A stretch of DNA of 64,000 nt from assembly GCA_016840035.1 (NCBI GenBank), contig JAEOTC010000121.1:1-64000 (forward strand), written 5' to 3'. The notes beneath the pieces are model-generated. The model made no database searches. It saw nothing but the letters and a program-made list of their open reading frames with translations, and was not told where the DNA came from. The first letter of the stretch is position 1, and each line of letters begins with the position of its first letter. This DNA is from Candidatus Hodarchaeota archaeon (lineage in GTDB: Archaea; Asgardarchaeota; Heimdallarchaeia; Hodarchaeales; Hodarchaeaceae). A program made the translations under genes and the position numbers. This document shows positions 2,232 to 62,507 of this stretch, piece after piece.

Positions 2232-3610
2232 GGATGCAAAACAAACCTAAATTGAATTCCTTGTTCATTTTTCGTAGAGATTTACGTGTTGATGACAATT
2301 CTGCTTTAAATTCCGCATTAGAATCGTCTTATCAAGTTTTACCAATCTTTATTTTGGATTCAAATCTCCTAAAAAACCCTGATCGTAGTGATAATGCGAT
2401 ACAATTCATGCAAGAATCTATTATTGATTTAAAGAATCAATTAAGTAATAAGAAAGGAGATTTACACGTCTTAGAGGGAAAACCGTGGGATGTTGTTAAC
2501 AGCTTACTTAGTGAAAGTAACTTGGATTTAAAAGCAATCTATTTTAACAGAGATTACACTCCTTATAGTATAAAACGGGACAGATTAATCCATAAAGTAG
2601 CTAAATCCCATGATGTTTCGTGTAGAATTTTTAGTGATCTTTTATTGAATGAACCTGAATCAATATTAAAAAAAGACGGAGCTCCTTATACTATCTTTAG
2701 CCCTTTCTATAGAAAGGCTTCAGAAAAACTGATAGTCCCTCCAAATTATCTTAACCGCGAGAACTTTCTGATTGGAAGACATATAAAAAAAATAAATATT
2801 GGAAAATTGAAATTTACGAGCAACCCCCATTTATTCATCAGGGGAGGAAGAAAAAATGGATCTTCAATTCTGAGAAGTATCAAGCAATTTAGTAAATATG
2901 AATCTGAAAGAGATTTTCCCTCAAAGCAGGGAACAACATTTCTATCTTCACATCTAAGATTTGGGACTTTATCAATTCGAGAAGCGTACCATGCCATAAA
3001 AAACCAAGGTAGCTTGCCATTAATGCGACAATTATACTGGAGAGATTTTTACCACTACATCGGATTTCATTTTCCCCATGTATTTAAAAAATCCTTTCGT
3101 GAAAAATATAACAATCTTAAATGGACCCAGAATTATAGAACTTTTACACTTTGGACAGAAGGAAAAACTGGGTTTCCCATTGTGGATGCAGGTATGCGTC
3201 AAATTAATAAAACAGGTTACATGCATAATCGGGTTCGGATGATTGTTGCCTCCTTTTTAACAAAAGATTTACACATTAATTGGCAATGGGGAGAAAAATA
3301 CTTTGCAAAAAAACTCGTAGATTTCGATATCTCTGTGAATAATGGAAATTGGCAGTGGAGTAGTAGTACAGGGTGTGATCCAGTTCCATATTTTCGTATC
3401 TTCAATCCTTGGACTCAACAGAGAAAATATGACCCTGAATGTAAATATATTAAAGAATATTTGCCTGAACTTAGAGAATTGACACCACAAGAAATCCATA
3501 ATTTAGAAAAAAAGATACCTCATGGTTTAAATTATCCAAAACCATTAGTAAACCATTCAGAGGCTCGAAAAAAAGCACTTTTGATGTTCAAAGGTGTTCA
3601 AGAGGTCTAA
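2228..3610 (+). CDS. phrB: Deoxyribodipyrimidine (class I CPD) photolyase
   Basis: FRRDLRVDDN, LSSHLRFG, LYWRDFY, GYMHNRVRM, NNGNWQW, YFRIFNP; overlaps the uvsE stop. Confidence 0.95.
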   Translation: MRMQNKPKLNSLFIFRRDLRVDDNSALNSALESSYQVLPIFILDSNLLKNPDRSDNAIQFMQESIIDLKNQLSNKKGDLHVLEGKPWDVVNSLLSESNLDLKAIYFNRDYTPYSIKRDRLIHKVAKSHDVSCRIFSDLLLNEPESILKKDGAPYTIFSPFYRKASEKLIVPPNYLNRENFLIGRHIKKINIGKLKFTSNPHLFIRGGRKNGSSILRSIKQFSKYESERDFPSKQGTTFLSSHLRFGTLSIREAYHAIKNQGSLPLMRQLYWRDFYHYIGFHFPHVFKKSFREKYNNLKWTQNYRTFTLWTEGKTGFPIVDAGMRQINKTGYMHNRVRMIVASFLTKDLHINWQWGEKYFAKKLVDFDISVNNGNWQWSSSTGCDPVPYFRIFNPWTQQRKYDPECKYIKEYLPELRELTPQEIHNLEKKIPHGLNYPKPLVNHSEARKKALLMFKGVQEV

Positions 3611-3641
3611 AATTATCAAATAAGGGAATTAAGTAATAATT

Positions 3642-4376
3642 TCAATATATTCTTCCGAGAGAGGCATCTAAGATCCTCCCTGTCATCAAAGGAGTTGTTG
3701 CAGCAAATTCTATCATTTCATTCAAATTCTCTGGTTGTAATGGTTCTCTAAGAAGTTGTTTTACAATTCTATCTGAAATTAACTTTTCCAAAGAAACACC
3801 GGTTTTTACTGCTTTCTGCTTTAATTCCCTGTTATGACGCTCAGTGAAGACATAAGTTGGAGAAACTCCGTTAATTCGAATATTTGGGGCTAAAACTTGT
3901 GCCATTGATCGAATGTAATAAACCAAACCTGCTTTTGCTATTCCATAGGACATTTTGTTAAGTGAGGCTTCAAAAGCGGAAGTACTTACAATATGAACTA
4001 TAGATCCAGTCTTCATTAATTTAGTTGCCATTTGTGTTAATAAAACTGCTGAAGTTAGATTTACGCTTATTACTTCATTGAAAAAGTTTGAATCAATTTC
4101 TAAAGGTTTTTTTGAGGCTAGAGATCCTCCTATAGCATTGATGAGAACATCAATAGATCCAACTTCAGATTTTACCCAATTTTCCAATTTATGAATTTCA
4201 TTTTCTCTTGTACAGTCAGCTGAAATGCTTTTAATATCTGGAAACCGATCACTTGACATGTTTAAACTAGTAACAAGAACCCGATTATTCTGTAAAGTAA
4301 GTTTTTTCATGATGGCTTCACCAATTCCACCAATAGCTGCACCAGTAATCAAAACTCTCTTATTTTCGATGATCAC
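3642..4376 (-). CDS. SDR family oxidoreductase
   Basis: VLITGAAIGGIG Rossmann motif, catalytic YGIAK, IRINGVSP. Confidence 0.88.
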   Translation of the reverse strand: MIIENKRVLITGAAIGGIGEAIMKKLTLQNNRVLVTSLNMSSDRFPDIKSISADCTRENEIHKLENWVKSEVGSIDVLINAIGGSLASKKPLEIDSNFFNEVISVNLTSAVLLTQMATKLMKTGSIVHIVSTSAFEASLNKMSYGIAKAGLVYYIRSMAQVLAPNIRINGVSPTYVFTERHNRELKQKAVKTGVSLEKLISDRIVKQLLREPLQPENLNEMIEFAATTPLMTGRILDASLGRIY

Positions 4377-4564
4377 AACGAATCTCCTCTTTTTGAAATT
4401 TATGATTGCGTTTTTTAATTATTTCTTATATTCTATAAATTCTGGAATCTATAATCCGATGTTCAAGTAAGTAGGAATTTATTTATTTAATAGAAATGCC
4501 CATCTTAGTCATAATTTGATCAAAAAAAGAGTACTAGAAAACGTTCTCCAAAGGAAATATTGAA

Positions 4565-6241
4565 ATGGAAGCATTATGGTATAAATCGTGGCCAGATGGA
4601 GTCAGAAAACATCTAGATTATCCAAATATAACAATTCATGCTCATTTTGAAGATACTGTGAGAAGAAATCCAGACTATCCCTTTCTATCCATACTTGGGA
4701 TGAATTACTCATATTCAGAAATTAATGATCAAGCAAATAGACTTGCCAATGCACTCCTGAAAAGAGGCATTTCAAAAGGTGATAAAATTGGAATATTTGC
4801 ACCAAATATTCCCCAATGGGTTGTAGCATTCTATGGAGTATTAAAAACAGGAGCTACGGTTGTTTTAATTTCTCCCTTATTAGGATCAGAAGATCTTAAA
4901 CATATAATCCTTGATTCTGAAATAAAACTTATAATTGCTCTAGATTTACTTTATCCGAAACTTGCAGATGATTGTTTTGATTGTCCCGTCCTCCAAGATG
5001 AAGAAAATATTATCATTACATCATTAGGTGATCTTCTTTCTCCAATAAAACTATTCTTAGCAAAAGCTATCCGAAAATTACCGAAAAACCCTCCTATTCC
5101 TAAAAGAGTTCTTAGATATCAACAACTTCTTGATGAAAATGAACCTTATTTCTCAAGCGTTAAATACGATCCAGAGTATGATATTGCAGTATTAGCATAT
5201 ACAGGAGGCACTACTGGGACACCTAAGGGAGCAATGTTGACTCATCGTAATATCATTAGTAATATGCGTCAAGCACGGGAATGGGCAATAACTACTCACC
5301 CATTGGGAGTCCATAAGAAATTTTTAGGAGCAGTTCCCTTTTTTCATGCAATTGGTTTAACTACAGTTTTTCTAGCTACTGTAGAATTTGAGAGTACCGT
5401 ATATCTTGTTCCGAATCCTAGAGAGTTTGAATCAATCTTAAAACTTATTTCTAAGGAGAGGATAAATTACTTTCATGGAGTTCCCACTTTATTCAAAGCA
5501 ATTATGAATATTCCGAATTTCCATAAGTATGATATGAACTCTCTAGATATTATTTTCTCTGGAGGAGCACCTTTACCAGCAGAATTAGCAATTAAAATTG
5601 AAAAAGCATTTAAGAATGCACTGGTGGTTGAAGCATATGGCATGACTGAACTATCTCCTATGGTCGCAGCAAACCCATTAGAAAAGGATAATAGAAAATA
5701 TGGAAGCATAGGGATTCCAATAACAGATACTAGATTGAAAATTGTCGATATTGATACTGGTAAAGAATTACCCCAAGGAACCTCAGGTGAAATTTGTGCC
5801 AAAGGTCCCCAGGTGATGAAAGGTTATTACAATAGAGTCGAAGATACAAAGCTCACAATTGATGAGGATGGCTGGTTGCATACTGGAGATATTGGTTATA
5901 TGGATGAAGATGGTTTCTTTTTTATTCAATCTAGAAAGAAAGATATGATTATCGTATCAGCCTATAAAGTTTTTCCCCCAGAACTGGAATCATATATTCG
6001 GAAAGAATTCGACCAAATAGAAGAAGTAGCAATCATTGGTATACCTGATGAATATCAGGGAGAATCAGTAAAAATGATTGCAGTCCTAAAAGAGGGTGCA
6101 GTATTAACCGATAAGCAATTCATAAATCAACTAAAAGGCAAAATTGCCGCTTATAAAATTCCAAAAATTATTGAATTTCGATCTGATCCATTACCGAAAA
6201 CTGGGATTGGCAAAATAGATAGAAAACTTTTACAAAAGTAA
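4565..6241 (+). CDS. Long-chain fatty acid-CoA ligase
   Basis: YTGGTTGTPKG AMP-binding motif, EAYGMTE, GWLHTGDIG, terminal GKID. Confidence 0.92.
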   Translation: MEALWYKSWPDGVRKHLDYPNITIHAHFEDTVRRNPDYPFLSILGMNYSYSEINDQANRLANALLKRGISKGDKIGIFAPNIPQWVVAFYGVLKTGATVVLISPLLGSEDLKHIILDSEIKLIIALDLLYPKLADDCFDCPVLQDEENIIITSLGDLLSPIKLFLAKAIRKLPKNPPIPKRVLRYQQLLDENEPYFSSVKYDPEYDIAVLAYTGGTTGTPKGAMLTHRNIISNMRQAREWAITTHPLGVHKKFLGAVPFFHAIGLTTVFLATVEFESTVYLVPNPREFESILKLISKERINYFHGVPTLFKAIMNIPNFHKYDMNSLDIIFSGGAPLPAELAIKIEKAFKNALVVEAYGMTELSPMVAANPLEKDNRKYGSIGIPITDTRLKIVDIDTGKELPQGTSGEICAKGPQVMKGYYNRVEDTKLTIDEDGWLHTGDIGYMDEDGFFFIQSRKKDMIIVSAYKVFPPELESYIRKEFDQIEEVAIIGIPDEYQGESVKMIAVLKEGAVLTDKQFINQLKGKIAAYKIPKIIEFRSDPLPKTGIGKIDRKLLQK

Positions 6242-6246
6242 GAAGG

Positions 6247-6269
6247 AACATGATCTGTATGATCATGTT
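6247..6269. terminator. Perfect hairpin between convergent genes
   Basis: AACATGATC-TGTAT-GATCATGTT, 5 nt after the ligase stop. Confidence 0.5.
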
Positions 6270-6284
6270 TAAGTTATTGTAAGC

Positions 6285-6425
6285 TCAAAATTCTACGAGA
6301 AACGCCAGCATTGTGACAATGATTGCAGATATTATTGACAATCCTGTAATTTGTAGTGCTTTTCGGAAATCTCGTTTTCGCATTTCCTTATTACTTACCT
6401 TTCCTGTATAAAACATTGTGGTCAT
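6285..6425 (-). CDS. 46-aa tail-anchored small membrane protein (not in the ORF track)
   Basis: Translated by hand: MTTMFYTGKVSNKEMRKRDFRKALQITGLSIISAIIVTMLAFLVEF; GAGG just upstream of the ATG. Confidence 0.55.
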   Translation of the reverse strand: MTTMFYTGKVSNKEMRKRDFRKALQITGLSIISAIIVTMLAFLVEF

Positions 6426-6475
6426 TGCCTCTAATGAATAGAATCTTTCTTTTTGATCGGACATCTGTTTTTACC

Positions 6476-7231
6476 TCATTTCATTGAATATTGATTTTTA
6501 AGCGCATTGGTCACACAGAATCTGAAAAAATATTGATAAAGGCCTTGGAATGACATAAACAGCGGTAAAACTATAATCAGACGCAAGTATCGAATATTAT
6601 CCGAATAATCTAAAAATAAACCTTCTAGATACACAATTCCTATTAAAATAAGTAGAGATAGTGCACCAAATCCGAATCCTGTTAATAATCTTCGTTGTCG
6701 TTCTTGTGGGCCGATGTTACATTGGCCTGGTTTATATCCTAAGCTTTTAAATAGAAAACCTTGAACTCTTTGCCGATTCTGTTCATCTGTTAGTACTTTA
6801 TCAACTTTCGGTTGAGGAATAATATTTTCCTTAATTAGATAACCTTTAATAGTTTCATTAAAATGCTCAGTTTGTTTTTCGACAAAATCATTTAAACCAT
6901 CAGGATAGTTTCCAGCCATAAATCCACCAATAAATCCACTTGTTCCATGAATGTGCTTTTCACTATCTTTCAGATCTACGTCTGAAGAAAAATGTCCAAA
7001 AACTAGTTTCATCCTATGATTCCCAATATTTTTGATCGCGAAAGATTTGTTCTCGAAAATTACGAACTTAATCTCATCGTGAGCCATTTCTTGTGCAAAG
7101 GCTGAGAGTGCTTGAAAAAGGCTTGACTGCAAGATATACTCGTCAGATTCATTTTCTTCGTCTTCCCGTGACCAGTGGAATAAAGGAATTCCTGAATCTT
7201 GTATAACAAAAACTTCATCTATACTACTCAT
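6476..7231 (-). CDS. Longin-like domain fused to a 'GxCNIG...FC' membrane domain
   Basis: N-term VFVIQDSGIPLF...SSLFQALSAFAQEM (Asgard longin pattern); C-term YKPGQCNIGPQERQRR, 2 TM, FRFCV. Confidence 0.65.
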   Translation of the reverse strand: MSSIDEVFVIQDSGIPLFHWSREDEENESDEYILQSSLFQALSAFAQEMAHDEIKFVIFENKSFAIKNIGNHRMKLVFGHFSSDVDLKDSEKHIHGTSGFIGGFMAGNYPDGLNDFVEKQTEHFNETIKGYLIKENIIPQPKVDKVLTDEQNRQRVQGFLFKSLGYKPGQCNIGPQERQRRLLTGFGFGALSLLILIGIVYLEGLFLDYSDNIRYLRLIIVLPLFMSFQGLYQYFFRFCVTNALKNQYSMK

Positions 7232-7349
7232 AATAATCTCTCTGGCTTAAGATATATGATATTCTCATCAATAAATCAGAGCTCTAAGCGCTAATATTAA
7301 AAGATTTTTCGTTTTTTATCGAATAAAAAATTTAAGATTACATAAATTC

Positions 7350-8087
7350 TTGGATTTAAGAAGTGAGTTCTTGGAACCGTTTAGAATTGAATCAAAACTC
7401 GGGTTTAGAAGACGGTTAATTCACTACTTTCTACTCCACTTAGCTAGAATTATATTTTGGTTTATTCCATTTGAAGTACATGGGAAAAATAACCTCACAG
7501 TGGAAGGAGTGCCAACTTTACTCACTTCAAATCATTTAAGTCATCTTGATTCAGTCTTTACTGCAGTAGCAGCTTTTCCAGTCAAACGTGCAATTAGATT
7601 TACAGGGGCAGCCGAATTTATGAAAAAGATGATGTTTCGTTGGACAAAGTACGAACTCGCCTTCCCTGTTGGAAGGGGACTAGAAGAAAGAGACAGATTT
7701 ATACGTAATACACTTACACTTCTCAAAAATAATGAAACTGTTGGAATATATCCCGAAGGGGGAAGGTCAAAAACAGGGAAGTTTCAATTTGAAAAAATTA
7801 AAGTTGGTGCTGGATGGATTGCGAAATTAGCAGGCCCAAATACAAAGGTTATACCTGTCTTTGTGTTTGGAACAAATAATATTATACCTTTTGGTAGATT
7901 TTTCCGTCTCAATTTCAATGCAAAAGTTAAAATCTATTTTGGACCTCCATTAAACTTAGATCGGTATTATAACTTACCAAATTCTATAGAAACTTCTCAA
8001 AGAATAACAAATGAGATTGTAAAGGGTATTATTACAGAAGGACGGAAATGTTTTGAGGATTTAGCAAATCATACTCATAAATCTTAA
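7350..8087 (+). CDS. Lysophospholipid acyltransferase (PlsC family)
   Basis: NHLSHLD (HX4D), YPEGGRS, VIPVFVFG. Confidence 0.88.
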   Translation: MDLRSEFLEPFRIESKLGFRRRLIHYFLLHLARIIFWFIPFEVHGKNNLTVEGVPTLLTSNHLSHLDSVFTAVAAFPVKRAIRFTGAAEFMKKMMFRWTKYELAFPVGRGLEERDRFIRNTLTLLKNNETVGIYPEGGRSKTGKFQFEKIKVGAGWIAKLAGPNTKVIPVFVFGTNNIIPFGRFFRLNFNAKVKIYFGPPLNLDRYYNLPNSIETSQRITNEIVKGIITEGRKCFEDLANHTHKS

Positions 8088-9842: not shown

Positions 9843-10002
9843 AGTGGTAGTATTCGACTTATTCTTCTTTCATTGGTCTTTTCATCAACTGCAGCTGATT
9901 TAACGACATTATTTGGGCTTATATTCTTTTCCTACATCTGACTAACGCTATAAGAAGAAACGATGAGTTAAGAAAAAAAAGAAAAGAGAGGGATAAATTC
10001 CT

Positions 10003-13000
10003 CTAGCTTTTTCGTCTGATGAAAATTACAGAGATAGATAGTAGAATTAAACTCCAGAGCTCAAAACCAGGTGAAACTGAAGTAGTGGTTGGTTCTGTGG
10101 TTGCAGATTCATCAGTAGTGGTAACAGTAGTAGTTGTTACTACCGTTGGCTCATTAACAGTAATGGAAACAGTAGCTGATCCATAATTTCCTGTTTGATC
10201 AAAGACGTTAATGCGAATAGTATGAGCTCCAGCACCAAGAGAGGCAAGAAATGAAGTGTCATTTACATTTATTCCTGGTATAAATACTGAATCTATATAC
10301 AGTTCAATAAGTTCAAGACCTGCTAGGTCACCTTGAGCCGGGTCAGAAGCACTCCATGTAATGGTCAGATCGTATTCGGTATCGCCTTCTTCTATAGTAA
10401 AGATTTCCTCATTTGTGGGACTTGTTATCTCTACAATAGGATTAGTAATATCAACTTCAAAGCCAATACCTGGACCTACAGCGGTTAAAGTTGCAAATTG
10501 CATTAGTAACACGGAATAGGAATCTAGAATTTCATCTTGATTTCTTCCCTCTGGAACAAGCATATCAACAACATTTGGATCATAGATAGAATCATCACCG
10601 CCTCCAAATTTCCATTCTTGAGGTTGAGAATAAAATTCCCGAAACGCTGAATAATCTTGACTACCTACGACAACGGTATAAGCCCAATCTTCTGTGGGGA
10701 TATCAACCACACTACGAGGTGCTTTTATGACGATGATCTTATCAACAGCATCAGAGAAAGATTCCATACCTTGGGTTTGAGTTCCATTTTCCCAAAGAAT
10801 ATATCGGTTAAATCCGTCTGATCGAACCAAAACTTCCCAGGCATTCTCGGAACCAATTGTAAAATGACCATTCTGATCGCAAAGTGTTGAACCTACTCCA
10901 GGTATCCGATTTTTATCGATATAGACTTGCATTAACGGATGACTGTATCCTACTGGGGAATTCCAGACATTTTCCAATTCTTTAAACTTGAATTCAAAAA
11001 TTGTCCATTCTGCATCATAACCAACACGAAATCTTAGTATATCCATAAATCCTTGACGATCAAGATCTCCTTCAGGATGCATCTGAGGATTAGTTGGATA
11101 AATTCCACGTTCATCTCCTTCTGGGTCATCAATTGAAAAAATTTCAGTCATTGTTACGCCTCCAAACGGAATGGTTAATCTCCATGGACCATCTTGGGGC
11201 ATGACATCAACATTCCTACTGTTAATTGTTCCCACAACTGAAAGAAACAGAGTATCTCCTTTTTCGGCATTCAAGGTGGTTAGTGGGATACTAAATTCAA
11301 TAAAGTCAGCAGCTGCAATATTTGTCTCAGTTGAGACATGTTTTTCCCACTGTTTTGATGTATTCACCTTATAGATATCGATCTTGCTTAGATCGGAAAA
11401 CTCTATTCGTAATTCTGTAGATAGCTCAATTCCAAGAATTTCACTTGAATCGGAGTGATTCGCGTAGCGAGGAAAGATGACTGAGTCATTCGCATTCGAA
11501 TCATAGAAATAGAGTCCGATAGAAACAGAACTGTTTCCTACAAGTGAAGCAAGTGAGAAACCGGGTGCAAGATCAATACGGAAGTGAACAGCTTCAAGAT
11601 CTTCATCAACAGCTGCATATAATTCTCCTAGAATGTCTACTTTGTCGTCCACTTTGCCAGAATCATTATAAAATGCTGAAAGATCCCATTCAGCTCCAAT
11701 TTTCTGACCATCTATTATAGGTAATTCTTTTCCTTTGAATACTCCTCCAATAGATGGTTTCATCTGTAAGAATAGACTAGGATACATATCAAGAATTTCT
11801 TGATCTGTCCAATTGATTCCTTTATATACTGCCCTTAAATTCAGTTTAAAAGCCCAATCGAAAAGCTCATCATGACCAGAATCACGATCAGAACCATACC
11901 ACCAGAACCAATCCGATCCTTCGGCAGCATAAAGGGCTTCCCAAGCATCAGTTACGTTTTCTGTAGGGTGTGCAGCCTCATAAGCAACTAAAGTTTCACG
12001 AGCAGTAATTAAACGATCCCATCCAAGATTTTCATCATCTTCACCAATCCAAACAGTTAAATCATTCGCCCAACTACCAGTTTTCATGGGAATTTCATCA
12101 AGTGTACTTACTGGATGTTCGTTCAGGTATTGAGAGGGAGTTATGGTGCGAAGCCAACCTGCATCTTGGGCAGCTTCAAGTTTCTCGTACAAACTCTCAC
12201 GGAACAAATTACCCGTATATTCAGTATCACCATCACCGTCTAAGTCATATTGGTAATTTTCCCAAGCATTCTCACCATCTAAAGCTACAGTAAAAACAGG
12301 GTCTTCAGTACCATTCCAGTCATTTAAAATGTCCTGAAGAGTATCTACAAAGTTTATTGCTGCAGTGTCTGGGATCAGCCCACCATAATTGAAACCTACT
12401 TCATCTGATAATTGTTGGTGACGGAAAAAAACAGCAACTGACTTATTTTCCTCTGTAACCCGATAAGGTTTGAACCATTGTTCAGGTGTTAATGAAGATA
12501 CAGATAATGATTTCTGAAGGATTGTATAATCAGTGGCAATCCAAGAAATCCCACTTTCATTTACCAGAGGTACTACTGCGGGACTTACAGCCATTTCCGA
12601 AGGCCACATACCGTTGGGATATTCACCGAAGTGCTCATACGTGAAATTGCGACCTTTTTGAATTTGAATTAATGCATCGTCACTCCAATTCGTTTCTCCT
12701 GAAGGAAGAGGAAGATTAGCATTTCCTGGATCGGTTTCTTGAGCTGACGTCAGGTTTACAAGAAGTGGAAGAATAGGGTGATAAAAAGGTGTCGTCATAA
12801 TTTCAAGACGTCCTTCATTCTGTAAAGAATCATGATAGGGGAGAGTATCCTGAATAATTGAGTAAGCATAGTTGAGGAGATTGGTTTTATCTGTTTTAGA
12901 ATAATGATTTCCTGCGATATCATTTTCTAGTGTTATATTTGCCACAACATTCATGTCAAGAGTTGTATAGCGTGGATTTATCCAATGTGCTAAAAATAAG

Positions 13001-49025: not shown

Positions 49026-49604
49026 ATGAGTGATAAAGCAGAATATGAATACTGTCGATTATGTGGGTATGTACGACGAGTGGGTAAAGGAGGAGTATGT
49101 CCTGCGTGTGGAGCAAGAGAAAGAGCATTCCTACCATATGAACATAAAGCTTCAGAGCAGAGACGCATGTTCTTAAAATTAGATGTACATCCTGTATCTG
49201 TTCACTTCACGATTTCCTATATTGCAGTGATCGCATTGCTGTATATAATCTCTATATTCTCTTCTGAATTGGTTGGAATATCAATAGAAGGAACGAGAGA
49301 TCTTCAAATTATCTTTTTCCCATTTCTAGTCATTGGAGGTGGAATTACAGGGATTATTGACGGAAAAATTCGTTTTAGAAAGCTTACCACTCCTTATCTA
49401 CAACGAAAAATTATTTTAGGAAGCGGTCTATTTGTTATTTCAGTTCTGATCTTTTTCGTACATAATCTTAGCACAACAGATGGATTGATCGGATTACTTG
49501 AAGGATTGTTGATTTTCTCAGCATTTGGAATTGCAAGCTACCTAGGTTGGATTGGTGCAGAAATGATATGCCCCATAGTTCCAGTCGGAAGACCGAAAGA
49601 GTAA
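49026..49604 (+). CDS. Rubredoxin-like domain fused to a DUF2231-like membrane domain
   Basis: CRLCG...CPACG; HPVSVHF followed by 4 TM, ending LGWIGAEM. Confidence 0.75.
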   Translation: MSDKAEYEYCRLCGYVRRVGKGGVCPACGARERAFLPYEHKASEQRRMFLKLDVHPVSVHFTISYIAVIALLYIISIFSSELVGISIEGTRDLQIIFFPFLVIGGGITGIIDGKIRFRKLTTPYLQRKIILGSGLFVISVLIFFVHNLSTTDGLIGLLEGLLIFSAFGIASYLGWIGAEMICPIVPVGRPKE

Positions 49605-54866: not shown

Positions 54867-55403
54867 ATGAAAAAGCTTTCTGACTCCGAGTTCATTGTTA
54901 TTTCAGAGATATTTAGAAAGCCATCTATTACATTAAACGAATTAGCAGAAGTTTTAGAGAACGCAAAAAATAGGAAAGTTAGAGAACCGGATAAAGCAGT
55001 TGATTTAAGATCTGTCTCTAAATTTAAATCTGTTGGATATAAAAAAATCAGAGAAGGATTAGAGAAATTAGCAACCGATTTTCGTCTTGATTTATCATTG
55101 CAAGCTGATAATCCTGAAGAGAAAAAAGAGGAAGAAAGCATTAATCACATTCTACTCAGAAATGGAATTTTACGCGGTTTTGACTTTCGAGCAAATGCCA
55201 TGGTATATTTATTTTATATTCTTGAGGAGCAGTCAATCCTTCCTTGGCAGGCTCATCATTGCAGACCAGAGTGTGAAACCGATTGTAATCACATTCTTGA
55301 TAGTCTCCGCTCTGAACATGGATTACCCTCGACAAACATACAGTTGGAAGTACTCGAATTAATTGAAATTACTATTAAAGAAATAATAGCTCGTGAAACG
55401 TGA
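54867..55403 (+). CDS. wHTH-like protein with Cys/His cluster
   Basis: IFRKPSITLNELAEVL; WQAHHCRPECETDC. Confidence 0.55.
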   Translation: MKKLSDSEFIVISEIFRKPSITLNELAEVLENAKNRKVREPDKAVDLRSVSKFKSVGYKKIREGLEKLATDFRLDLSLQADNPEEKKEEESINHILLRNGILRGFDFRANAMVYLFYILEEQSILPWQAHHCRPECETDCNHILDSLRSEHGLPSTNIQLEVLELIEITIKEIIARET

Positions 55404-56161
55404 TTAAAATGTCTGATCTCCCACATATAATTGGTTCTGATGTTCCTTCTTCACCACCAGAAAAACCACGAATCATTCGTCCTAGTCGGAATTTTTTGTA
55501 TAAAAACTATTTTCTTTTCTTATTAACGGCCATTCTTTTTATTGCGTCAATGGTAATTTTCTTCTTTATTATTAATACCTTTATTGGCAGTTCTCAAGGC
55601 CCAGGAACCCAAAAACAATTAACAGATATGTCAGTCCTCATGACAGTGGGATTTTCATTACTCTGGGTGATTCTTTTTGTAATTTATGGAGTGGGGATGT
55701 TTATTTATGTAAAACAAATGGTATTCATCGTACATGGAAGTGAAATTGTGGTTAAGAAGGGACTCATTAATAAGACGGAAAAACATGTTCCATACAGAAC
55801 TGTTACTCACATCAGTATGCGATCAGGACCATTTGACAGATTATTTAACATTGGAACTGTAGAAATCCAAACAGCTGGTGGACCAAGTTCTTCTCTAGAA
55901 TCAATGGCGGAAGAAAAACTCGAAGGAATAATCATTTATCGAGAAGTCCGTGATTATATCCTGACCCAGCTTCGTCTTTTCCAACAACAACAAAAAGGAG
56001 AGATATCTTCTGATGAGTCTGCCATAATTCCCTCAAACGAAACTGATCTTTTAAACGCTCTCTTGGATATAAAAGTAATCCTAAAAAACAAGTTCGAGAG
56101 TTTAGAGGAGAAATTCAGTCAATTGTCTGACCAATTAAAAAATCAGAGGAAATCCTATTAG
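55400..56161 (+). CDS. Membrane-flanked bacterial PH (bPH_2) domain protein
   Basis: 2 TM, VKKGLINK..VPYRTV..GPFDRLFNIGTVEIQTAG, C-terminal coiled coil. Confidence 0.85.
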   Translation: MIKMSDLPHIIGSDVPSSPPEKPRIIRPSRNFLYKNYFLFLLTAILFIASMVIFFFIINTFIGSSQGPGTQKQLTDMSVLMTVGFSLLWVILFVIYGVGMFIYVKQMVFIVHGSEIVVKKGLINKTEKHVPYRTVTHISMRSGPFDRLFNIGTVEIQTAGGPSSSLESMAEEKLEGIIIYREVRDYILTQLRLFQQQQKGEISSDESAIIPSNETDLLNALLDIKVILKNKFESLEEKFSQLSDQLKNQRKSY

Positions 56162-56208
56162 AAATTAACGTATGAGAAATAAATGTACCGTCTGATGTGT
56201 TCCTAAAA

Positions 56209-56667
56209 ATGTCAGCTAATAAAGATTCGGTAGAAGAACGAATTCTGATCGATTTAAATCCTGAGATTACTGCAAAGATAGATGTTTTAGTGGAAAAAGG
56301 ATTATATCCTGATAAAAAGGAGTTTCTTGAACAAGCAATAAGAGCTCAATTAAATATCCATCAGGAAACCTTTCAAGAGTTAGAAAGAGTACAAAATTTT
56401 GTAATGGGCATCGTGAATTTTTCTGCGGAGGATCTGGAAAAAACAGTAGCAAAAGGAAAGAAACGAGTTATTAAGGTTGTAGGACGGTTATCTTTCTCAT
56501 CTAATGTTACTCCTGAGCTGATAGACCGTTCAATTGACAAAATTATCATTGCAGGAATTTTAAAAGCTCCTTCAAATGTTATGGAAACACTGAATTCTAA
56601 ACGTTATAGTATTTTGGGATCAAAATATACAGAAAGTCATAGGTTAACTTCTAGAACGGAGGAATAG
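56209..56667 (+). CDS. CopG/RHH-domain regulator
   Basis: ILIDL..KIDVLVEKGLYPDKKEFLEQAIRAQL. Confidence 0.75.
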   Translation: MSANKDSVEERILIDLNPEITAKIDVLVEKGLYPDKKEFLEQAIRAQLNIHQETFQELERVQNFVMGIVNFSAEDLEKTVAKGKKRVIKVVGRLSFSSNVTPELIDRSIDKIIIAGILKAPSNVMETLNSKRYSILGSKYTESHRLTSRTEE

Positions 56668-56827: not shown

Positions 56828-57613
56828 ATGGAGAATTCAAAGATGAACCACCACAAAATATCTAAAACGCGGATATTCCCTGTAAATACACAGATTCTCA
56901 CCTTATTTCTAGTAACTTTAGTGATAATTTCTACTATCAGGATAATTGAAGCAAAACCACAAAAAACTTCGGAAAATATATTGGACGGTGTAATCAGTCA
57001 AGATGAATATTCATATTCACAGAGTACGGAAGATGGTAAATTTATTCTTTATTGGGAACCCACAGATGAGAATACAATATTCTTCGCAATGCAAGCATTG
57101 ACAACTGGTTATATGTCAATAGGAATTAACCCTTCTCAGCGAATGAAGGATGCAGATATGTATTTCGGGTGGGTAGACTCAAATGGTTCAGTATTCATGA
57201 TAGATGCCTTTGCAGTTGATGACATGGGTACTCATCCCCCAGATACTGAATTGGGTGGTACAAATGATATTCTGGACTATAATGGGAGTGAAAATGCACA
57301 GACTACAATTATTGAATTTAAGAGACTAATAGTATCACCTGATTCAGAATATGATAATGCTATTCCGATGGTAGGTGAAATCCCCATTATTTGGGCGTAT
57401 GGAACTTCGGATAATTTTGAAGTTCACCATGGAGTTGTTAGCCGCGGTACAATGTTCTGGAGTCTAGAAGGGGCAAGTGTATTAAGGTTTGATTTCAGTC
57501 AACCCTTTATCTTGGGGCTAGCTTTTCTGATTACTTTAACAGGATTAGTAATCTATGTGGATAGCAAAGGTCGTCCTACCAGTAACAACGAGAAGACAAA
57601 CAGTGGTGAATAG
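56828..57613 (+). CDS. Membrane-anchored DOMON domain protein (heme-binding type)
   Basis: Signal/TM, GYMSIG...RMKDADM (Met ligand), IEFKR, IIWAYG...HHG (His ligand), C-terminal TM. Confidence 0.85.
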   Translation: MENSKMNHHKISKTRIFPVNTQILTLFLVTLVIISTIRIIEAKPQKTSENILDGVISQDEYSYSQSTEDGKFILYWEPTDENTIFFAMQALTTGYMSIGINPSQRMKDADMYFGWVDSNGSVFMIDAFAVDDMGTHPPDTELGGTNDILDYNGSENAQTTIIEFKRLIVSPDSEYDNAIPMVGEIPIIWAYGTSDNFEVHHGVVSRGTMFWSLEGASVLRFDFSQPFILGLAFLITLTGLVIYVDSKGRPTSNNEKTNSGE

Positions 57614-57615
57614 CT

Positions 57616-59061
57616 ATGGCTGAATTACATCCTATCGTTTTACATTTTCATATTGCCAATCTGGCATTGAGTATCTTTACCTTACTACTTGCAATCACTG
57701 TGTCTGCATTTGAGCGAACAGATTTTTTTAATCGAAAGCTCGTAAAAAGAACATTTCGTGGTAGGGAGCTTTTGAGTCAGCAAACTTGCAGAACGTATGC
57801 TGATAAATTTGAATTTGTAGCATTCATGTTTCTTCTTTATGGAATTGTAACTTTTTTTGTAGCAGGAGTTGCAGGTTTTCTAGATGCCTCAGGAAATATT
57901 GGGATTGGGGAAATTAATCTAGATAATCTTCTCTTAGGGATATCAGAAGCAAGTCTCAGCTCAATACTTGGTTATAAAGTTATATATTCCATTATTGGAG
58001 TCTCCTACTTCCTCTTCGCAGCGCTTATCCGCATATATTTTGCCAGTTACCGCAAAGAAAGAATTTTTTCACAACATCCATTATATTGGATAGTCCTTCT
58101 CTTAAGTCAAATTCTTGGTTACATTCTTTTAACGCTCGTTTCTGGAGCTGGAGCAATTAGAGTTTATGGTGGAACCTTAATTTCTGATATTCCAATCTTT
58201 GGGGAGTTCTTACCTAATGGATCACTGGATCCTACCCCCATCGTCCTTTTGGGTACTGTATTAATCGTCTTCCTCATTATCATTGCTGGTTTTTCAAAGA
58301 AACCTCCAGAAATCGAACCTCCTCACGAAGGAGAGCATGAAGAACATGAAATAACTCTTTGGCCTGCAGCACTAGCATTCGGCACAGTCTTTGTTGCAGC
58401 TGCTATCATTAACTTTACTGATGGCAACGAATTAGCAGCTTTCGGTTTCTTCTGGACATTTTTTATTGTACTGATTGGTTTCATCTTTAATGAAGCATTT
58501 AAACAAGATTTGTTTAGAAGACCACGTGAAGGATGGATTTGGTTATTCCTTGGGAGTGAAGTGATTCTATTCTCTATGATAATTGGGACAAGTTTCGGTC
58601 TAAGAGTTGCGTCTGGGAGTAATTGGCCTGATCAGAGTCAGATTCTAGATATCCCTCTAACAGCAATTAATACATTTATCTTAATAATTAGTAGTTTTAC
58701 TATGGTGAAATCGGTAGATGCAATACAGCAAGGTAAACAAAAGTTATCGCGAGATTATCTTCTCGCAACTGCGGGATTGGGAACACTATTCCTTGGTATT
58801 CAACTAACAGAATATCTAGAGTTGTTTGCACATCATTTTACACCAACTACGAACCTATTTGGATCCACATTTTATGTCCAAACAGGCCTTCATGGAGCTC
58901 ACGTATTCTTCGGTGTCCTTCTAGTTATCTTTACAACACTGAGAGCTCATCAAGGTGGATTTACCAAAGAAAATCACGGCAGTTTAGAGTTAGTTGGGCT
59001 CTATTGGCATTTCGTTGATCTTGTATGGATTGTATTATTTACATTAGTATATCTAATATAG
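57616..59061 (+). CDS. coxC: Heme-copper oxidase subunit III fused to an N-terminal DUF2231-like domain
   Basis: N-term LHPIVLHF with TM helices; C-term WLFLGSEVILF, NTFILIISS, TGLHGAHV, LYWHFVDLVW. Confidence 0.85.
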   Translation: MAELHPIVLHFHIANLALSIFTLLLAITVSAFERTDFFNRKLVKRTFRGRELLSQQTCRTYADKFEFVAFMFLLYGIVTFFVAGVAGFLDASGNIGIGEINLDNLLLGISEASLSSILGYKVIYSIIGVSYFLFAALIRIYFASYRKERIFSQHPLYWIVLLLSQILGYILLTLVSGAGAIRVYGGTLISDIPIFGEFLPNGSLDPTPIVLLGTVLIVFLIIIAGFSKKPPEIEPPHEGEHEEHEITLWPAALAFGTVFVAAAIINFTDGNELAAFGFFWTFFIVLIGFIFNEAFKQDLFRRPREGWIWLFLGSEVILFSMIIGTSFGLRVASGSNWPDQSQILDIPLTAINTFILIISSFTMVKSVDAIQQGKQKLSRDYLLATAGLGTLFLGIQLTEYLELFAHHFTPTTNLFGSTFYVQTGLHGAHVFFGVLLVIFTTLRAHQGGFTKENHGSLELVGLYWHFVDLVWIVLFTLVYLI

Positions 59062-59093
59062 AAGAGAAATTGATTGAATGGGTGAAATAAAAA

Positions 59094-59747
59094 TTGAAAA
59101 TAAAAACCAAAGTCTCGCTAGCTAGTGTACTATTTGGATTATTCTTTGCAGGACCAGTTATTTCAGGGAGAGCTTCCACGGCTCAATCTACATATACCTC
59201 TCAGATTGAGTTTTTATTCCTCCTTGTTGTGCTGGTATCAATTTTAATTGCTTCTATAGTTTTTGGATTATTGATATACATAATAATCCGCTTTAGAGAA
59301 GGAAACACAAATACTGTAAGAAAACCGATCCAAAACGGAATGCGCTTGGAAATCGGTTGGATAATATTCGCCACGATAATTGTAGTTTCCCTCTTTGCTG
59401 CAAGCTTACCCGCAACTAGTTCGTATTTTACAGAGCGAGATGATTATGACGAAGAAATCCGTGTTGTTGCATATCAGTATAACTTCACATTTACCAAAGA
59501 AAATGGGAATACAACAACAGGATTTGTCGAAATTGAAGTAAATAGAGTATATATGCTTAATATTACTTCTATCGATGTAATACATTCATTTTATGTCCAT
59601 GAACTGAGTATAAAGCTTGATATGGTTCCAGGGCGTTACAATATTGTATATTTGCAAGTTCTGGTGCCGGGAACTTATGAAGTTCATTGTGCGGAATATT
59701 GTGGATTTGGACACTATATCATGGAAGCGAGGATAATCGTAAAGTAA
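59094..59747 (+). CDS. coxB: Cytochrome c oxidase subunit II (CuA)
   Basis: LEIGW, DVIHSF, CAEYCGFGHYIM; no fused cytochrome c. Confidence 0.95.
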   Translation: MKIKTKVSLASVLFGLFFAGPVISGRASTAQSTYTSQIEFLFLLVVLVSILIASIVFGLLIYIIIRFREGNTNTVRKPIQNGMRLEIGWIIFATIIVVSLFAASLPATSSYFTERDDYDEEIRVVAYQYNFTFTKENGNTTTGFVEIEVNRVYMLNITSIDVIHSFYVHELSIKLDMVPGRYNIVYLQVLVPGTYEVHCAEYCGFGHYIMEARIIVK

Positions 59748-59763
59748 ATAAGAGGAAATTAAT

Positions 59764-61443
59764 ATGAGCTCTCACAGTAGTATAATTAAAGACGGTCAAT
59801 TCAAACTTTTTCCGCTCTTTGTAGGCATTCCGTTTGCAATAATTGTATTCATAGTTTTGAAGATTTTACTTGGTTCTTTTGGTTTCATACCAGAATTAGT
59901 TTTCTTATCTATTCTTAGTTTCACAATTTATTTGTCCACTTATGATAAAATTGATTATATTAGATTAATTGGAACCACAAATCATGCTGAAATTGGTATT
60001 CTGTATATTCTTTTAGCTATCGTAAGTGTATTTATTGGAGGGACGCTAGCTATAATCATGAGAACTGAACTGGCTTTTCCGGGTGCTACACTTGTAGATT
60101 CGGAACTGTATTCAGTTATTTTTACCGCTCACGGTACAATTATGATATTTATGGTTATTTTCCCATTAGGTGCAGGTTTTGGTAATTATCTTGTTCCTAG
60201 ATTAATAGGAGCACCTGATATGTATTGGCCTAGGTGGAACAACGCAGCTTTATGGCTGCTAATCCCTTCAGGGGTTTTAATCTTTACTGCACAATCGTCT
60301 GTGGGTTGGACATTGTACACTCCTTTAAGTGCTGAACTCTGGGGTGTGGGTGTAGATATGTGGATTATAGGAGTATTACTTGCGGGTGTTTCCTCTTTAG
60401 TGTCTGCGATTAATTTCATTATGACTGTTGCTACCATGCGTAAACCTGGATTGACATGGGGGAAGCTAGATCTTTTTAGTTGGTCCATTGTAGCCACATC
60501 AATTATCCAATTATGTGCCACTCCCTTAATAACAACTGGACTCGCTCTCTTACTCTCAGATCGTATATTGGATACAGCATTCTTCTCAGCAGTAGGATTT
60601 GGAGTAGGTTCGTTTTTATGGCAACATGTGTTCTGGAGTTATTCTCATCCTGCGGTTTATATTATGATTCTTCCTGCGATGGGATTAACTTCCCTTATGG
60701 TTTCAAAGTTTTCTAGAAATGAAATCTTTGGATACGAGCTAATGGTAATATCTATGATGGCTATTGTCTTTCTTGGTTTCCTAGTGTGGGGTCACCATCA
60801 GTATACTCTTTATGGTGCAGCCACAGATGCGTTTACAACCACCTTGTTCTCCTTATTAACCTCATTAATAGCTGTACCTTCGGGAGTCAAAACTTTTAAT
60901 TGGCTATTTACAATGTGGGGAGGTAATGTCAAGTTAGAGATCCCGATCGTGTTTCCGTTTGGTTTCATTATCGGGTTCGTCATTGGAGGAATAACTGGGG
61001 TTTGGTTGAACATTGTTCCAGTGGATATAATTGTTCATGATACAGCATTTGTGGTGGGTCATTTTCATATGATCATTTTAGGAGGAGCACTTACTGCGCT
61101 TATTGGTGCCTTCTATAATTATTTCCCCGAAATAACTGGGAAAATGTATAATCGACCCCTTGCTTGGGTTCATTGTATCATGTGGATCATTGGTTTTTTG
61201 ATAACATTTAATTCTATGATGATAGCAGGATTACATGGAATGCCTCGTAGATATTTCGATTATTCAACATTTGGTAATGTTGATGTTCTCGCGTTTTGGA
61301 ACTTTTTAGCGACCGTAGGTGCATATTTGATGTTCCTCTCTGGTGTAATCTTTGTAATCAACATGATTTACAGCTTAAGTAAAGGTCCAGAAGCAGGCGA
61401 TGATCCATTTAACCTATCACTTGATGAGGTCCCCACAGTTTAA
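59764..61443 (+). CDS. coxA: Heme-copper oxidase subunit I, type A2
   Basis: AHGTIMIF, PDMYWPRWNN (D-channel), WSYSHPAVY (A2 YS motif), WGHH, GVKTFNW (K-channel), GHFH, GMPRR. Confidence 0.96.
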   Translation: MSSHSSIIKDGQFKLFPLFVGIPFAIIVFIVLKILLGSFGFIPELVFLSILSFTIYLSTYDKIDYIRLIGTTNHAEIGILYILLAIVSVFIGGTLAIIMRTELAFPGATLVDSELYSVIFTAHGTIMIFMVIFPLGAGFGNYLVPRLIGAPDMYWPRWNNAALWLLIPSGVLIFTAQSSVGWTLYTPLSAELWGVGVDMWIIGVLLAGVSSLVSAINFIMTVATMRKPGLTWGKLDLFSWSIVATSIIQLCATPLITTGLALLLSDRILDTAFFSAVGFGVGSFLWQHVFWSYSHPAVYIMILPAMGLTSLMVSKFSRNEIFGYELMVISMMAIVFLGFLVWGHHQYTLYGAATDAFTTTLFSLLTSLIAVPSGVKTFNWLFTMWGGNVKLEIPIVFPFGFIIGFVIGGITGVWLNIVPVDIIVHDTAFVVGHFHMIILGGALTALIGAFYNYFPEITGKMYNRPLAWVHCIMWIIGFLITFNSMMIAGLHGMPRRYFDYSTFGNVDVLAFWNFLATVGAYLMFLSGVIFVINMIYSLSKGPEAGDDPFNLSLDEVPTV

Positions 61444-61469
61444 TAAAGTAACCCTAGGAGATAAAAAAG

Positions 61470-61811
61470 ATGGTAACACAAGTTGAAACACAAGATACTC
61501 ATGAGTATATTAAACGGCCGTATTTCTTAGTTTTTCTAATGCTGGGGTTTTTGACGGTTCTTGAACTGAATGTTGGATTTATTTCTGATATAGCAGGAGA
61601 AGGATCAAATGTTGAGGGATTTATTAATTTAGCGCTAATTACATTAGCAATTCTCAAAGCTTATCTTGTTGCTGCATTTTTTATGGGAATTAAATATCAA
61701 GATAATCCCAAGGTGGTTTGGGGGGTAATGTTTGGGATTCCTATGTTCATAGCATTACCAGTAGTTGTAATCCCTGCCTTAGGGACAATTGTCTATCTTT
61801 GTGGAATATAA
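61470..61811 (+). CDS. coxD: Cytochrome c oxidase subunit IV
   Basis: YFLVF..LTVLEL, LAILKAYLVAAFFMGIKY. Confidence 0.85.
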   Translation: MVTQVETQDTHEYIKRPYFLVFLMLGFLTVLELNVGFISDIAGEGSNVEGFINLALITLAILKAYLVAAFFMGIKYQDNPKVVWGVMFGIPMFIALPVVVIPALGTIVYLCGI

Positions 61812-61838
61812 TATAAAGTGTATAATCGATGTGTAGGT

Positions 61839-62507
61839 ATGGAACAAAGCACTGTAGTCGGAACAATTATAGGATTTATGATTCTAGCTGGAATTGGGTC
61901 TGCTTTCATCCTCTATCCCTTAAGTCAAAATCAAGTATTACCCGTTATTAAACCCGCACCAGAATTTAGCTTAGTAAACCAGGATAATGAAACTGTGGAC
62001 TTACAGTCATTTTCAGGAAAGGTTATAATGCTGGGTTTCCTTTATACTCAATGTACTGATGATTTATGCTCACTGATGACTCAAGATTTCAAAACACTCC
62101 AAACCTTACTTGGATCCTCATTTGGTATGGATACTATGCTTATTTGTATTTCATTAGATCCATTATTTGATACTCCTACGGTATTAAGAAACTACGCTCT
62201 ATCCAATGGGGTTAATCTAAGTGGGTGGCAATTTCTGACGGCCTATGAATTAGATACAATCCAAAAGGTTGTTGATGATTACGGAGTGTTGTCTTATGTC
62301 AATGAATTTGAGGGATTGGTAAATACAACTGAAAATAACACCACCTTCAATCTAAAGATCAGTCATGGTAATGATACTCAACCGAGTATCCTAATCCATT
62401 CTTGGGTGAGTATGCTAATAGATCAAGATCTTTTGATACGAAAGGTATATACTCGTGTAAGCTGGGTTGTGAGCGCTGCACTTGAGGATATGAGGAGTTT
62501 ATTGTAA
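61839..62507 (+). CDS. SCO1/SenC copper chaperone
   Basis: N-terminal TM, APEFSLVNQD, FLYTQCTDDLC, ISLDP..DTP, IHS. Confidence 0.88.
   Translation: MEQSTVVGTIIGFMILAGIGSAFILYPLSQNQVLPVIKPAPEFSLVNQDNETVDLQSFSGKVIMLGFLYTQCTDDLCSLMTQDFKTLQTLLGSSFGMDTMLICISLDPLFDTPTVLRNYALSNGVNLSGWQFLTAYELDTIQKVVDDYGVLSYVNEFEGLVNTTENNTTFNLKISHGNDTQPSILIHSWVSMLIDQDLLIRKVYTRVSWVVSAALEDMRSLL

Follow-up and report, generated by a model that had tools for sequence, protein, structure and literature searches.

Several described respiratory systems bear on the locus reported here. The caa3-type A2 heme-copper oxidases of Thermus and Rhodothermus have a CuA site in subunit II and a built-in electron donor, a cytochrome c fused to that subunit. 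E. coli bo3 and aa3-600 are four-subunit enzymes of the A family. In Sulfolobus SoxM and the actinobacterial bcc-aa3, electrons pass from quinol to O2 without a soluble cytochrome c, by way of a bound CuA donor (sulfocyanin and diheme QcrC, respectively) and a bc-type complex containing Rieske protein and cytochrome b. DOMON domains with a Met/His pair are found in CYBDOM proteins, where the membrane-domain partner is a cytochrome b561 with four His on four helices and two hemes, and in cellobiose dehydrogenase (CDH), whose tethered DOMON cytochrome shuttles single electrons to its partner. We analysed a window of 64,000 nucleotides from a Candidatus Hodarchaeota archaeon (bases 1-64000 of the 133.6-kb contig JAEOTC010000121.1; assembly GCA_016840035.1, 4.3 Mb, ~87% complete). 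The source names of close homologues agree with a position in Hodarchaeales, class Heimdallarchaeia. A six-gene oxidase cluster on its (+) strand (56828-62507) has the order DOMON - DUF2231-like::CoxIII - CoxII - CoxI - CoxIV - SCO, so that a DOMON protein and a subunit III fused to an additional membrane domain precede an otherwise familiar set of oxidase genes (Table 1).

The window oxidase resembles each of these systems in part. Like the caa3 enzymes, it has YSHPxV in place of the helix-VI Glu, the metal ligands, both the K and the D channel and CuA in subunit II; unlike them, it is without a cytochrome c domain, its candidate donor being a separate DOMON protein anchored by a transmembrane (TM) helix, and its subunit III carries an extra 5-TM domain at the N-terminus. 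It shares the four-subunit A-family plan with bo3 and aa3-600, and for a near-identical Asgard enzyme oxidation of ubiquinol, but none of cytochrome c, has been reported (10.1101/2025.11.07.685452); the window oxidase, however, keeps CuA, is without the R71/D75/H98/Q101 set, is of the A2 and not the A1 subtype and combines a 7-TM subunit III with the extra domain. SoxM and bcc-aa3 differ in their Rieske and cytochrome b proteins, no such bc-type complex having been detected in the family to which the window's genome belongs. The DOMON fold, the Met/His pair and the membrane-domain partner are shared with CYBDOM proteins and CDH, and several real DOMON-cytochrome b561 fusions are among the close homologues of the window DOMON (31-38% identity); the window system differs in being made of two separate polypeptides, in having a DUF2231-like partner without the four-His pattern, and in that its proposed acceptor is the CuA of an oxidase.

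Both additions, the DOMON protein and the N-terminal domain of the subunit III fusion (N-domain), are in our judgement very probably true oxidase subunits. The fuller reading, that this is an A2-type CuA enzyme with DOMON-heme input to CuA, ultimately driven by quinol and working without bc1 or cytochrome c, we consider evenly balanced. A first-pass annotation of the window had already proposed that the DOMON heme and the membrane domain on subunit III form a split CYBDOM-like wire to CuA. All six open reading frames (ORFs) on which it relied were recovered exactly where it had placed them, including the 2-bp spacing of the first two; the intergenic gaps along the cluster are, in order, 2, 32, 16, 26 and 6 bp. 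Its claim that no operon protein contains CxxCH was borne out by a motif scan of the six proteins. Families were assigned to the operon proteins by Pfam and NCBIfam profile searches.

CoxI and CoxII were aligned to E. coli CyoB and CyoA, with sequences taken from NC_000913.3. All six metal-ligand His residues are kept in CoxI (H123, H295, H344, H345, H433 and H435, pairing with CyoB H106, H284, H333, H334, H419 and H421). Also conserved are Y299, which is the cross-linked Tyr, Lys K376 of the K channel and Asp D152 of the D channel. The Glu of helix VI is lost: E286 pairs with A297 within FWSYSHPAVY. By this YSHPAV motif and its kept ligands and channels, CoxI is of the A2 subtype at the sequence level, the label given to it in the first-pass annotation. 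The residues of the bo3 high-affinity quinol site, R71/D75/H98/Q101, correspond to I91, L95, L115 and V118 in CoxI, all aliphatic. The CuA site that had been called intact is confirmed by the CyoA alignment: CoxII keeps the ligands (H, C, E, C, H, M), reading HSFYV ... CAEYCGFGHYIM, whereas CyoA reads SASYSGPGFSGM at the ligand positions and has lost them. Because CuA is kept and the bo3 quinol-site residues are absent, the oxidase appears to be built for electron entry via CuA, without a quinol site of the bo3 type. The SCO protein that closes the operon has, in this one sequence, the cysteine pair C79-TDDL-C84 (Cx4C) as opposed to the usual copper-binding CxxxC.

The DOMON protein consists of a Sec-type signal peptide, an extracytoplasmic DOMON domain (84.6 bits, against a Pfam cut-off of 32.7 bits) and a single C-terminal TM helix. 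Three residues are invariant among 25 homologues with identities down to 30%: the Met of (R)MKDAD, the His in PHPPD and a C-terminal His, the second of VHHG. They include the Met and the HHG His that had been picked out from the window alone, and the putative heme ligands are Met106 and His201 in ORF numbering (M101/H196 in P0121). These lie 95 residues apart; the corresponding spacing is 98 (Met65/His163) in the heme-b cytochrome domain of CDH. For the Drosophila CYBDOM protein CG8399 it is 93; here again the Met belongs to an acidic motif, and DOMONs of the non-heme kind lack both residues (PMC10691727). An AlphaFold2 (AF2) model (pLDDT 83.9) matched the DOMON of human DBH (4zel) in Foldseek with E 2.6e-7, and the Foldseek probability was 1.0 for pyranose dehydrogenase 6jt6 and for CDH 4qi3 and 1d7c as well as for 4zel. 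Further homologues are DOMON-Redoxin fusions, in which the partner has the AhpC-TSA thioredoxin fold. With these residues and this fold, the protein is likely to bind a Met/His-ligated heme b.

The membrane tether noted in the first-pass annotation is not only present but conserved. A comparison of ten cox-linked DOMONs gave a mean pairwise identity of 73.5% for the TM anchor, 64.2% for the DOMON domain, 24.8% for the signal region and 26.1% for the tail. Since the anchor is more conserved than the globular domain, it appears to make a specific intramembrane contact, and the cox-linked DOMON would therefore belong to a membrane complex as one of its subunits, as opposed to being free on the surface.

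A search of 5.8 billion proteins for the subunit III fusion returned ~35 full-length clusters (467-499 aa, 100% coverage, identity down to 42%), all under Asgard names (Hodarchaeales, Heimdallarchaeota, Kariarchaeaceae and Promethearchaeota). In an alignment of 24 orthologues, the N-terminal 240 residues are conserved about as much as the CoxIII part. Invariant positions of the N-domain are H5, P6, H10, F11, D90, K121, R139, Y141 and R146, with H12 nearly so, and its conserved His residues are limited to H5, H10 and H12, all at the outer end or start of TM1. The AF2 model of the N-domain is confident (pLDDT 84.8, pTM 0.81) and has five long helices. Lys and Arg, counted loop by loop over the alignment, come to 18.3 in the odd loops as against 2.9 in the even ones, which places the N-terminus of the fusion outside. 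With five TM helices the chain would therefore arrive on the cytoplasmic side, where a canonical 7-TM CoxIII starts, and an acidic, His-rich, cytoplasmic linker joins the two parts. It also follows from the N-out topology that H5, H10, H12, D90 and K121 lie together at the outer membrane face, on the same side as CuA and the DOMON domain.

Relatives of the N-domain are few. The window fusion scores 17 bits against DUF2231 (PF09990), below the gathering cut-off of 26.4 bits, while the N-domains of orthologues P0037 and P0009 score 27.2 and 21.8 bits and the standalone protein P0247 scores 19.1; with its own match below threshold and those of the orthologues higher, the DUF2231 assignment is reasonable but remote. 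These proteins share an HPxxxHF motif at the start of TM1. An exhaustive HMMER search of 1.8 billion representatives returned 16 relatives of the N-domain only, among them standalone proteins of ~220-260 aa. No DOMON gene lies alongside the standalone homologues examined, whose neighbours are MFS, TetR and Big_7 genes; the 259-aa ORF upstream of one of them is not DOMON-like.

A b561-like transmembrane heme wire was considered for the N-domain and rejected as a specific relationship, because the four-His pattern and a specific fold match are both lacking. The cytochrome b561 profile PF03188 had no match in the fusion protein in a Pfam search. Foldseek against the PDB found no relative of the N-domain model (best E 0.58), and a shape search of the ESM Atlas returned unnamed clusters only (TM-score ~0.55); a feature search of the same resource gave a score of 0.75. 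VIA-align returned generic helical bundles, the b561 structure 4o6y (Z 9.8) ranking behind designed bundles (Z 11). Of the split wire that had been proposed, the DOMON part is supported, and the b561-like membrane domain is not: conserved His occurs only at the outer end of TM1, and the fold is matched no better by b561 than by designed bundles.

Synteny was surveyed in 83 genomes of the class, 22 of them from the window's own family. The full fusion is present in 8 of the 83, all within that family, and in each of the eight a DOMON match lies directly upstream on the same strand. Five of the eight, the window's own genome (G000) and G048, G049, G053 and G062, have CoxI on the contig that carries the fusion; in G067 CoxI is on a different, short contig, and G063 has a C-terminal CoxI fragment only, on another contig. 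An apparent exception, GCA_020348965.1 (G055, CP070760.1), with the gene pair and a 165-aa CoxII but no CoxI, was rejected as an assembly artefact, since a 100-N gap (locus 9947-10047) cuts coxII at '...SIDVI', just before the first CuA His. This 3.16-Mb Heimdallarchaeota assembly is presented as a 'single-contig' one, and the gap hides the remainder of the cox operon; calls of Complex IV presence or absence made from it would be wrong. The survey thus bears out the DOMON adjacency and subunit III fusion foreseen in the first-pass annotation, the pair being syntenic with cox genes wherever the contig allows.

The pairing of the two genes is also tight in three public contigs. In NJBF01000076.1, CP070760.1 and JBHLLX010000100.1, whose fusions are 83%, 55% and 42% identical to that of the window, the stop and start codons of the DOMON-fusion pair overlap by one base or abut. 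NJBF01000076.1 (Heimdallarchaeota B3_Heim) has the six-gene order of the window operon; in JBHLLX010000100.1 the other cox genes are rearranged and the pair is intact. Cytochrome bd genes adjoin the DOMON-cox cluster in G055 and G062, and in CP070760.1 cydAB lies directly upstream of the pair and is co-directional with it. None of the non-Asgard DOMON relatives examined is in an oxidase locus, the Redoxin and b561 fusions lying elsewhere. Our results support the view that the DOMON and the N-domain are integral, co-evolving parts of the oxidase. The feature is real and well conserved, and it suggests an unusual electron feed to the enzyme.

Conventional electron donors were sought by profile search across the family. 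The window's own genome, which has a single COX1 copy, gave no match to Copper-bind, Rieske, Cytochrome_B, Cytochrom_C or Cytochrom_C_asm, so neither Ccm/cytochrome c nor Rieske-cytochrome b genes were detected in it. Cytochrome_B and Cytochrome_CBB3 were each found in 0 of the 22 family genomes, which thus yielded neither a cytochrome b nor a monoheme cytochrome c. A blue-copper donor, which the first-pass annotation had named as evidence that would count against its model, is represented by one Copper-bind (plastocyanin-like) match among the 22, in G061, which is without the fusion; the sole match in a Cupredoxin_1 search was CoxII itself. Of the 21 other family genomes, 7 have Rieske matches, five as open frames of ~336-344 aa and two of 117 aa (G060 and G061). 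The longer type occurs in genomes without COX1 too, and no cytochrome b accompanies either type in the family genomes. Hidden c-type cytochromes were considered and rejected after a genome-wide CxxCH scan, in which the only ORF with two motifs was the small subunit of a NiFe-hydrogenase. Control genomes gave matches in every search, and the absences are consistent over many incomplete genomes. The independence from cytochrome c and bc1 that had been proposed therefore agrees with the family at large, in which no cytochrome c, Ccm/Ccs, cytochrome b or bc1-type Rieske protein was detected. These searches support the conclusion that cytochrome c, bc1 and plastocyanin-like carriers are not in use in the lineage, judged by its gene content. 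A quinol pool does exist, since the five fusion genomes that were tested all encode the quinol oxidase cytochrome bd.

Part of this arrangement has been described. Adjacency of DOMON and cox genes in Hodarchaeales was reported by Appler et al. (2024), whose chain model routes electrons through Complex III and cytochrome c and who also report Complexes I and II in Heimdallarchaeia (10.1101/2024.07.04.601786). In a 2025 preprint, 'cyoABCD' of NJBF01000076.1 was expressed in E. coli with the DOMON gene not included; the enzyme showed no cytochrome c oxidase activity, showed ubiquinol oxidase activity in solubilised membranes, and was called a typical ubiquinol oxidase (10.1101/2025.11.07.685452). 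The upstream DOMON gene and the N-terminal extension of 'CyoC' both go unmentioned there. The DUF2231-like::CoxIII fusion is described in neither paper, and we found no description of it in the literature, where a search on DUF2231 returned a single paper, a cysteine-annotation database that names it once. What is already known is thus the DOMON adjacency; the subunit III fusion and the family-wide failure to detect conventional donors go unmentioned in both of these papers.

We propose the following route as the most likely. Membrane quinol would be the ultimate electron donor and would be oxidised at the outer-face His/His/His/Asp/Lys pocket of the N-domain, reducing the DOMON heme; the tethered heme b would then pass electrons to CuA one at a time, in the place of cytochrome c. 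The whole complex would act as a quinol-dependent oxidase without bc1 or cytochrome c. As quinol oxidation is possible at the outer face, no transmembrane wire would be needed. The points that argue for this route are the tight gene pair, the invariant Met and His, the DOMON fold, the b561-fused relatives, the N-out cluster and the donor absences. From such observations of gene order, fusion, conservation, topology, ligands and fold we infer that the DOMON binds heme, that it passes electrons to CuA and that the fused domain oxidises quinol, though not with equal confidence: donation from the DOMON to CuA is, on sequence evidence, slightly favoured, while the N-domain as quinol site is a tentative assignment that we would sooner doubt than accept. 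The failure of the B3_Heim enzyme to oxidise cytochrome c agrees with DOMON input.

A number of points weigh against this proposal. Subunits II and III are not known to be in contact in A-type structures, which raises a question of geometry between the N-domain and CuA. No cofactor pattern can be recognised in the N-domain, and its structure has no specific match. A profile search of PDB sequences for solved heme DOMONs gave no residue-level alignment; its matches were confined to the b561 portion of fused members or to an alginate lyase of no relevance. The DOMON signal is Sec-type and not Tat-type, so that heme loading would occur outside the cell. The genome is ~87% complete, and the donor absences are therefore not proof. 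MqnA (PF02621), a marker of the futalosine pathway, was not found in five genomes, no other route of quinone biosynthesis having been searched. Finally, the quinol oxidase activity reported without the DOMON (10.1101/2025.11.07.685452) weakens the proposal, as the DOMON may be dispensable.

That activity is also the chief argument for a simpler explanation, in which the core enzyme is itself a quinol oxidase and the DOMON and fused domain are non-essential, serving as an overflow or alternative electron entry, as a protective or reactive-oxygen-related redox module, or as a regulator. The expressed genes come from an operon with the window's six-gene order, and there is precedent for an oxidase with CuA that accepts electrons from cytochrome c as well as from ubiquinol (cited as reference 12 of 10.1101/2025.11.07.685452). 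We nonetheless consider this explanation improbable. In CoxI the bo3 quinol-site residues are all aliphatic and CuA is kept, and strict conservation of the gene pair and of the DOMON anchor is hard to square with dispensability. The assay used crude membranes of E. coli, which has bo3 and bd of its own, and some activity remained in a control mutant; with this background and an undefined 'cyoC' construct, the DOMON may still be required. The preprint does not say whether the full 483-aa 'cyoC' was used, and if it was, the activity may have come from the N-domain itself.

A role in assembly is somewhat less probable again. The two proteins would form a metalloreductase/chaperone pair that handles Cu (or heme) in CuA/CuB maturation together with SCO, an idea that draws on the SCO chaperone gene at the end of the operon, on the ferric reductase activity of eukaryotic CYBDOM proteins (PMC10784544, PMC10784552), on the fusion of some DOMON relatives to Redoxin/AhpC-TSA thioredoxin-fold domains resembling SCO, and on the outer-face His/His/Asp/Lys cluster, which could bind metal. 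Covalent fusion to a structural subunit and a highly conserved DOMON anchor indicate instead a stoichiometric, permanent subunit, and assembly factors would leave CuA with no electron donor where neither cytochrome c nor cupredoxin is detected. The least likely of the explanations is that the DOMON is fed electrons from outside the cell, by Fe(II), reduced humics or the shuttle of a syntrophic partner, and passes them to CuA. The domain is extracytoplasmic, electron exchange with external partners is known for DOMON cytochromes of the CDH type (PMC10691727 and its references), and a DOMON paralogue with a surface anchor of PGF-CTERM-like type is encoded on contig C129 of the same genome; against it are the Complexes I and II reported in Heimdallarchaeia (10.1101/2024.07.04.601786). 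Cytochrome bd, and hence a quinol pool, is likewise present, and uptake from outside would leave the conserved fused membrane domain and TM anchor unexplained.

Among archaea, Hodarchaeales are currently held to be the closest to eukaryotes, and their ability to respire O2, and the means by which they might do so, bear on models of eukaryogenesis. CoxII has CuA, CoxI is without the bo3 quinol site, and the family searches detected no bc1, cytochrome c or cupredoxin donor; our data fit neither the Complex III/cytochrome c model (10.1101/2024.07.04.601786) nor the label of a typical ubiquinol oxidase (10.1101/2025.11.07.685452). For the oxidase, a concrete electron route is offered by the two conserved extra parts. 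If the route is correct, electrons would enter a heme-copper oxidase in a new way, a DUF2231-like domain would have its first function, and the heterologous assay of the B3_Heim enzyme would have omitted a conserved subunit.

A second protein in the window, of 192 aa, shares the HPxxxHF motif. Its N-terminal CxxC...CxxC module is followed by four TM helices that open with VHPVSVHF; likeness to the N-domain is confined to a 16-residue motif, with an hhalign probability of 9%. The charge distribution, judged by eye, would have the motif face the cytoplasm, beside the rubredoxin-like domain. The family is restricted to Hodarchaeales-like genomes (52 clusters), on contigs equal in length to those that bear the fusion. 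JBHLLX010000100.1 encodes a 36% identical orthologue 4.5 kb away from the DOMON-fusion pair, near cytochrome bd genes. We speculate from these sequences that HPxxxHF may mark a site exchanging electrons with whichever redox domain is attached. The wider proposal, that the DOMON and DUF2231-like domain form an undescribed quinol:CuA module that replaces bc1 and cytochrome c and makes the CuA-containing A2 enzyme a self-contained quinol oxidase, with the HPxxxHF module serving again, inverted in the membrane, beside a cytoplasmic rubredoxin-like domain (49026-49604), is one we regard as unlikely.

Table 1. Coordinates of the oxidase operon and of other features mentioned in the text; positions refer to the window unless a contig is named
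Feature	Position	Strand	Basis or remark
DOMON protein, 261 aa	56828-57613	+	Pfam PF03351, E 8.5e-24
Fusion protein, 481 aa	57616-59061	+	N-terminal 5-TM part and COX3 at residues 308-480
DUF2231-like 5-TM domain (fusion residues 1-240)	57616-58335	+	alignment, AF2, charge count, orthologue DUF2231 scores, rare standalone homologues
Canonical 7-TM CoxIII part of fusion	58336-59061	+	PF00510, E 3e-23; NCBIfam subunit III models
CoxII, complete CuA site	59094-59747	+	PF00116 and PF02790 (COX2, COX2_TM); TIGR02866, E 5e-41
CoxI, A2-type catalytic subunit	59764-61443	+	PF00115 (COX1), E 4e-137
CoxIV, small subunit IV	61470-61811	+	PF03626 (COX4_pro), E 9e-9
SCO1/SenC-type copper chaperone	61818-62507	+	PF02630, 63.9 bits, E 2e-17
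Rubredoxin-like 4-TM protein, 192 aa	49026-49604	+	CxxC...CxxC module, weak RUBY_RBDX match
bPH_2 membrane protein	55400-56161	+	upstream of cox operon
RHH_8 regulator	56197-56667	+	upstream of cox operon
Surface protein, 338 aa	62529-63545	-	two DUF7282 repeats, signal peptide, C-terminal TM/basic anchor
DOMON paralogue, 246 aa, own genome	C129:4900-5268 (locus 1303-2043)	-	DOMON with same Met and His
NiFe-hydrogenase small (Oxidored_q6) and large subunit genes, own genome	C114:8993-11391	-	met in CxxCH screen

The remaining features lie around the operon or elsewhere. Directly upstream of the cox cluster, on the same strand, are genes for a ribbon-helix-helix regulator (RHH_8) and a membrane bPH_2 protein, and the RHH_8 protein could be a regulator of the operon. 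Convergent with the operon end is the gene for the DUF7282 surface protein; its position is not kept in B3_Heim, and it is therefore probably unrelated to the oxidase. The C129 DOMON paralogue ends in its PGF-CTERM-like anchor (TPGFQGLLLIVGII...KRKK) and stands outside any cox context, next to an open-ended ORF of 398 aa. A Chloroflexota relative of the DOMON (CP070642.1, locus 3381-7919) lies in an oxidative-stress, MsrPQ-like cluster with a rubrerythrin/ferritin, a desulfoferrodoxin-N peptide, an Fe-SOD, a small Rieske protein, an MsrP-like molybdoenzyme and a fragment of an MsrQ-like b-type cytochrome, a neighbourhood that indicates for standalone DOMONs of the subfamily a role in the periplasm, either in redox chemistry or under oxidative stress.

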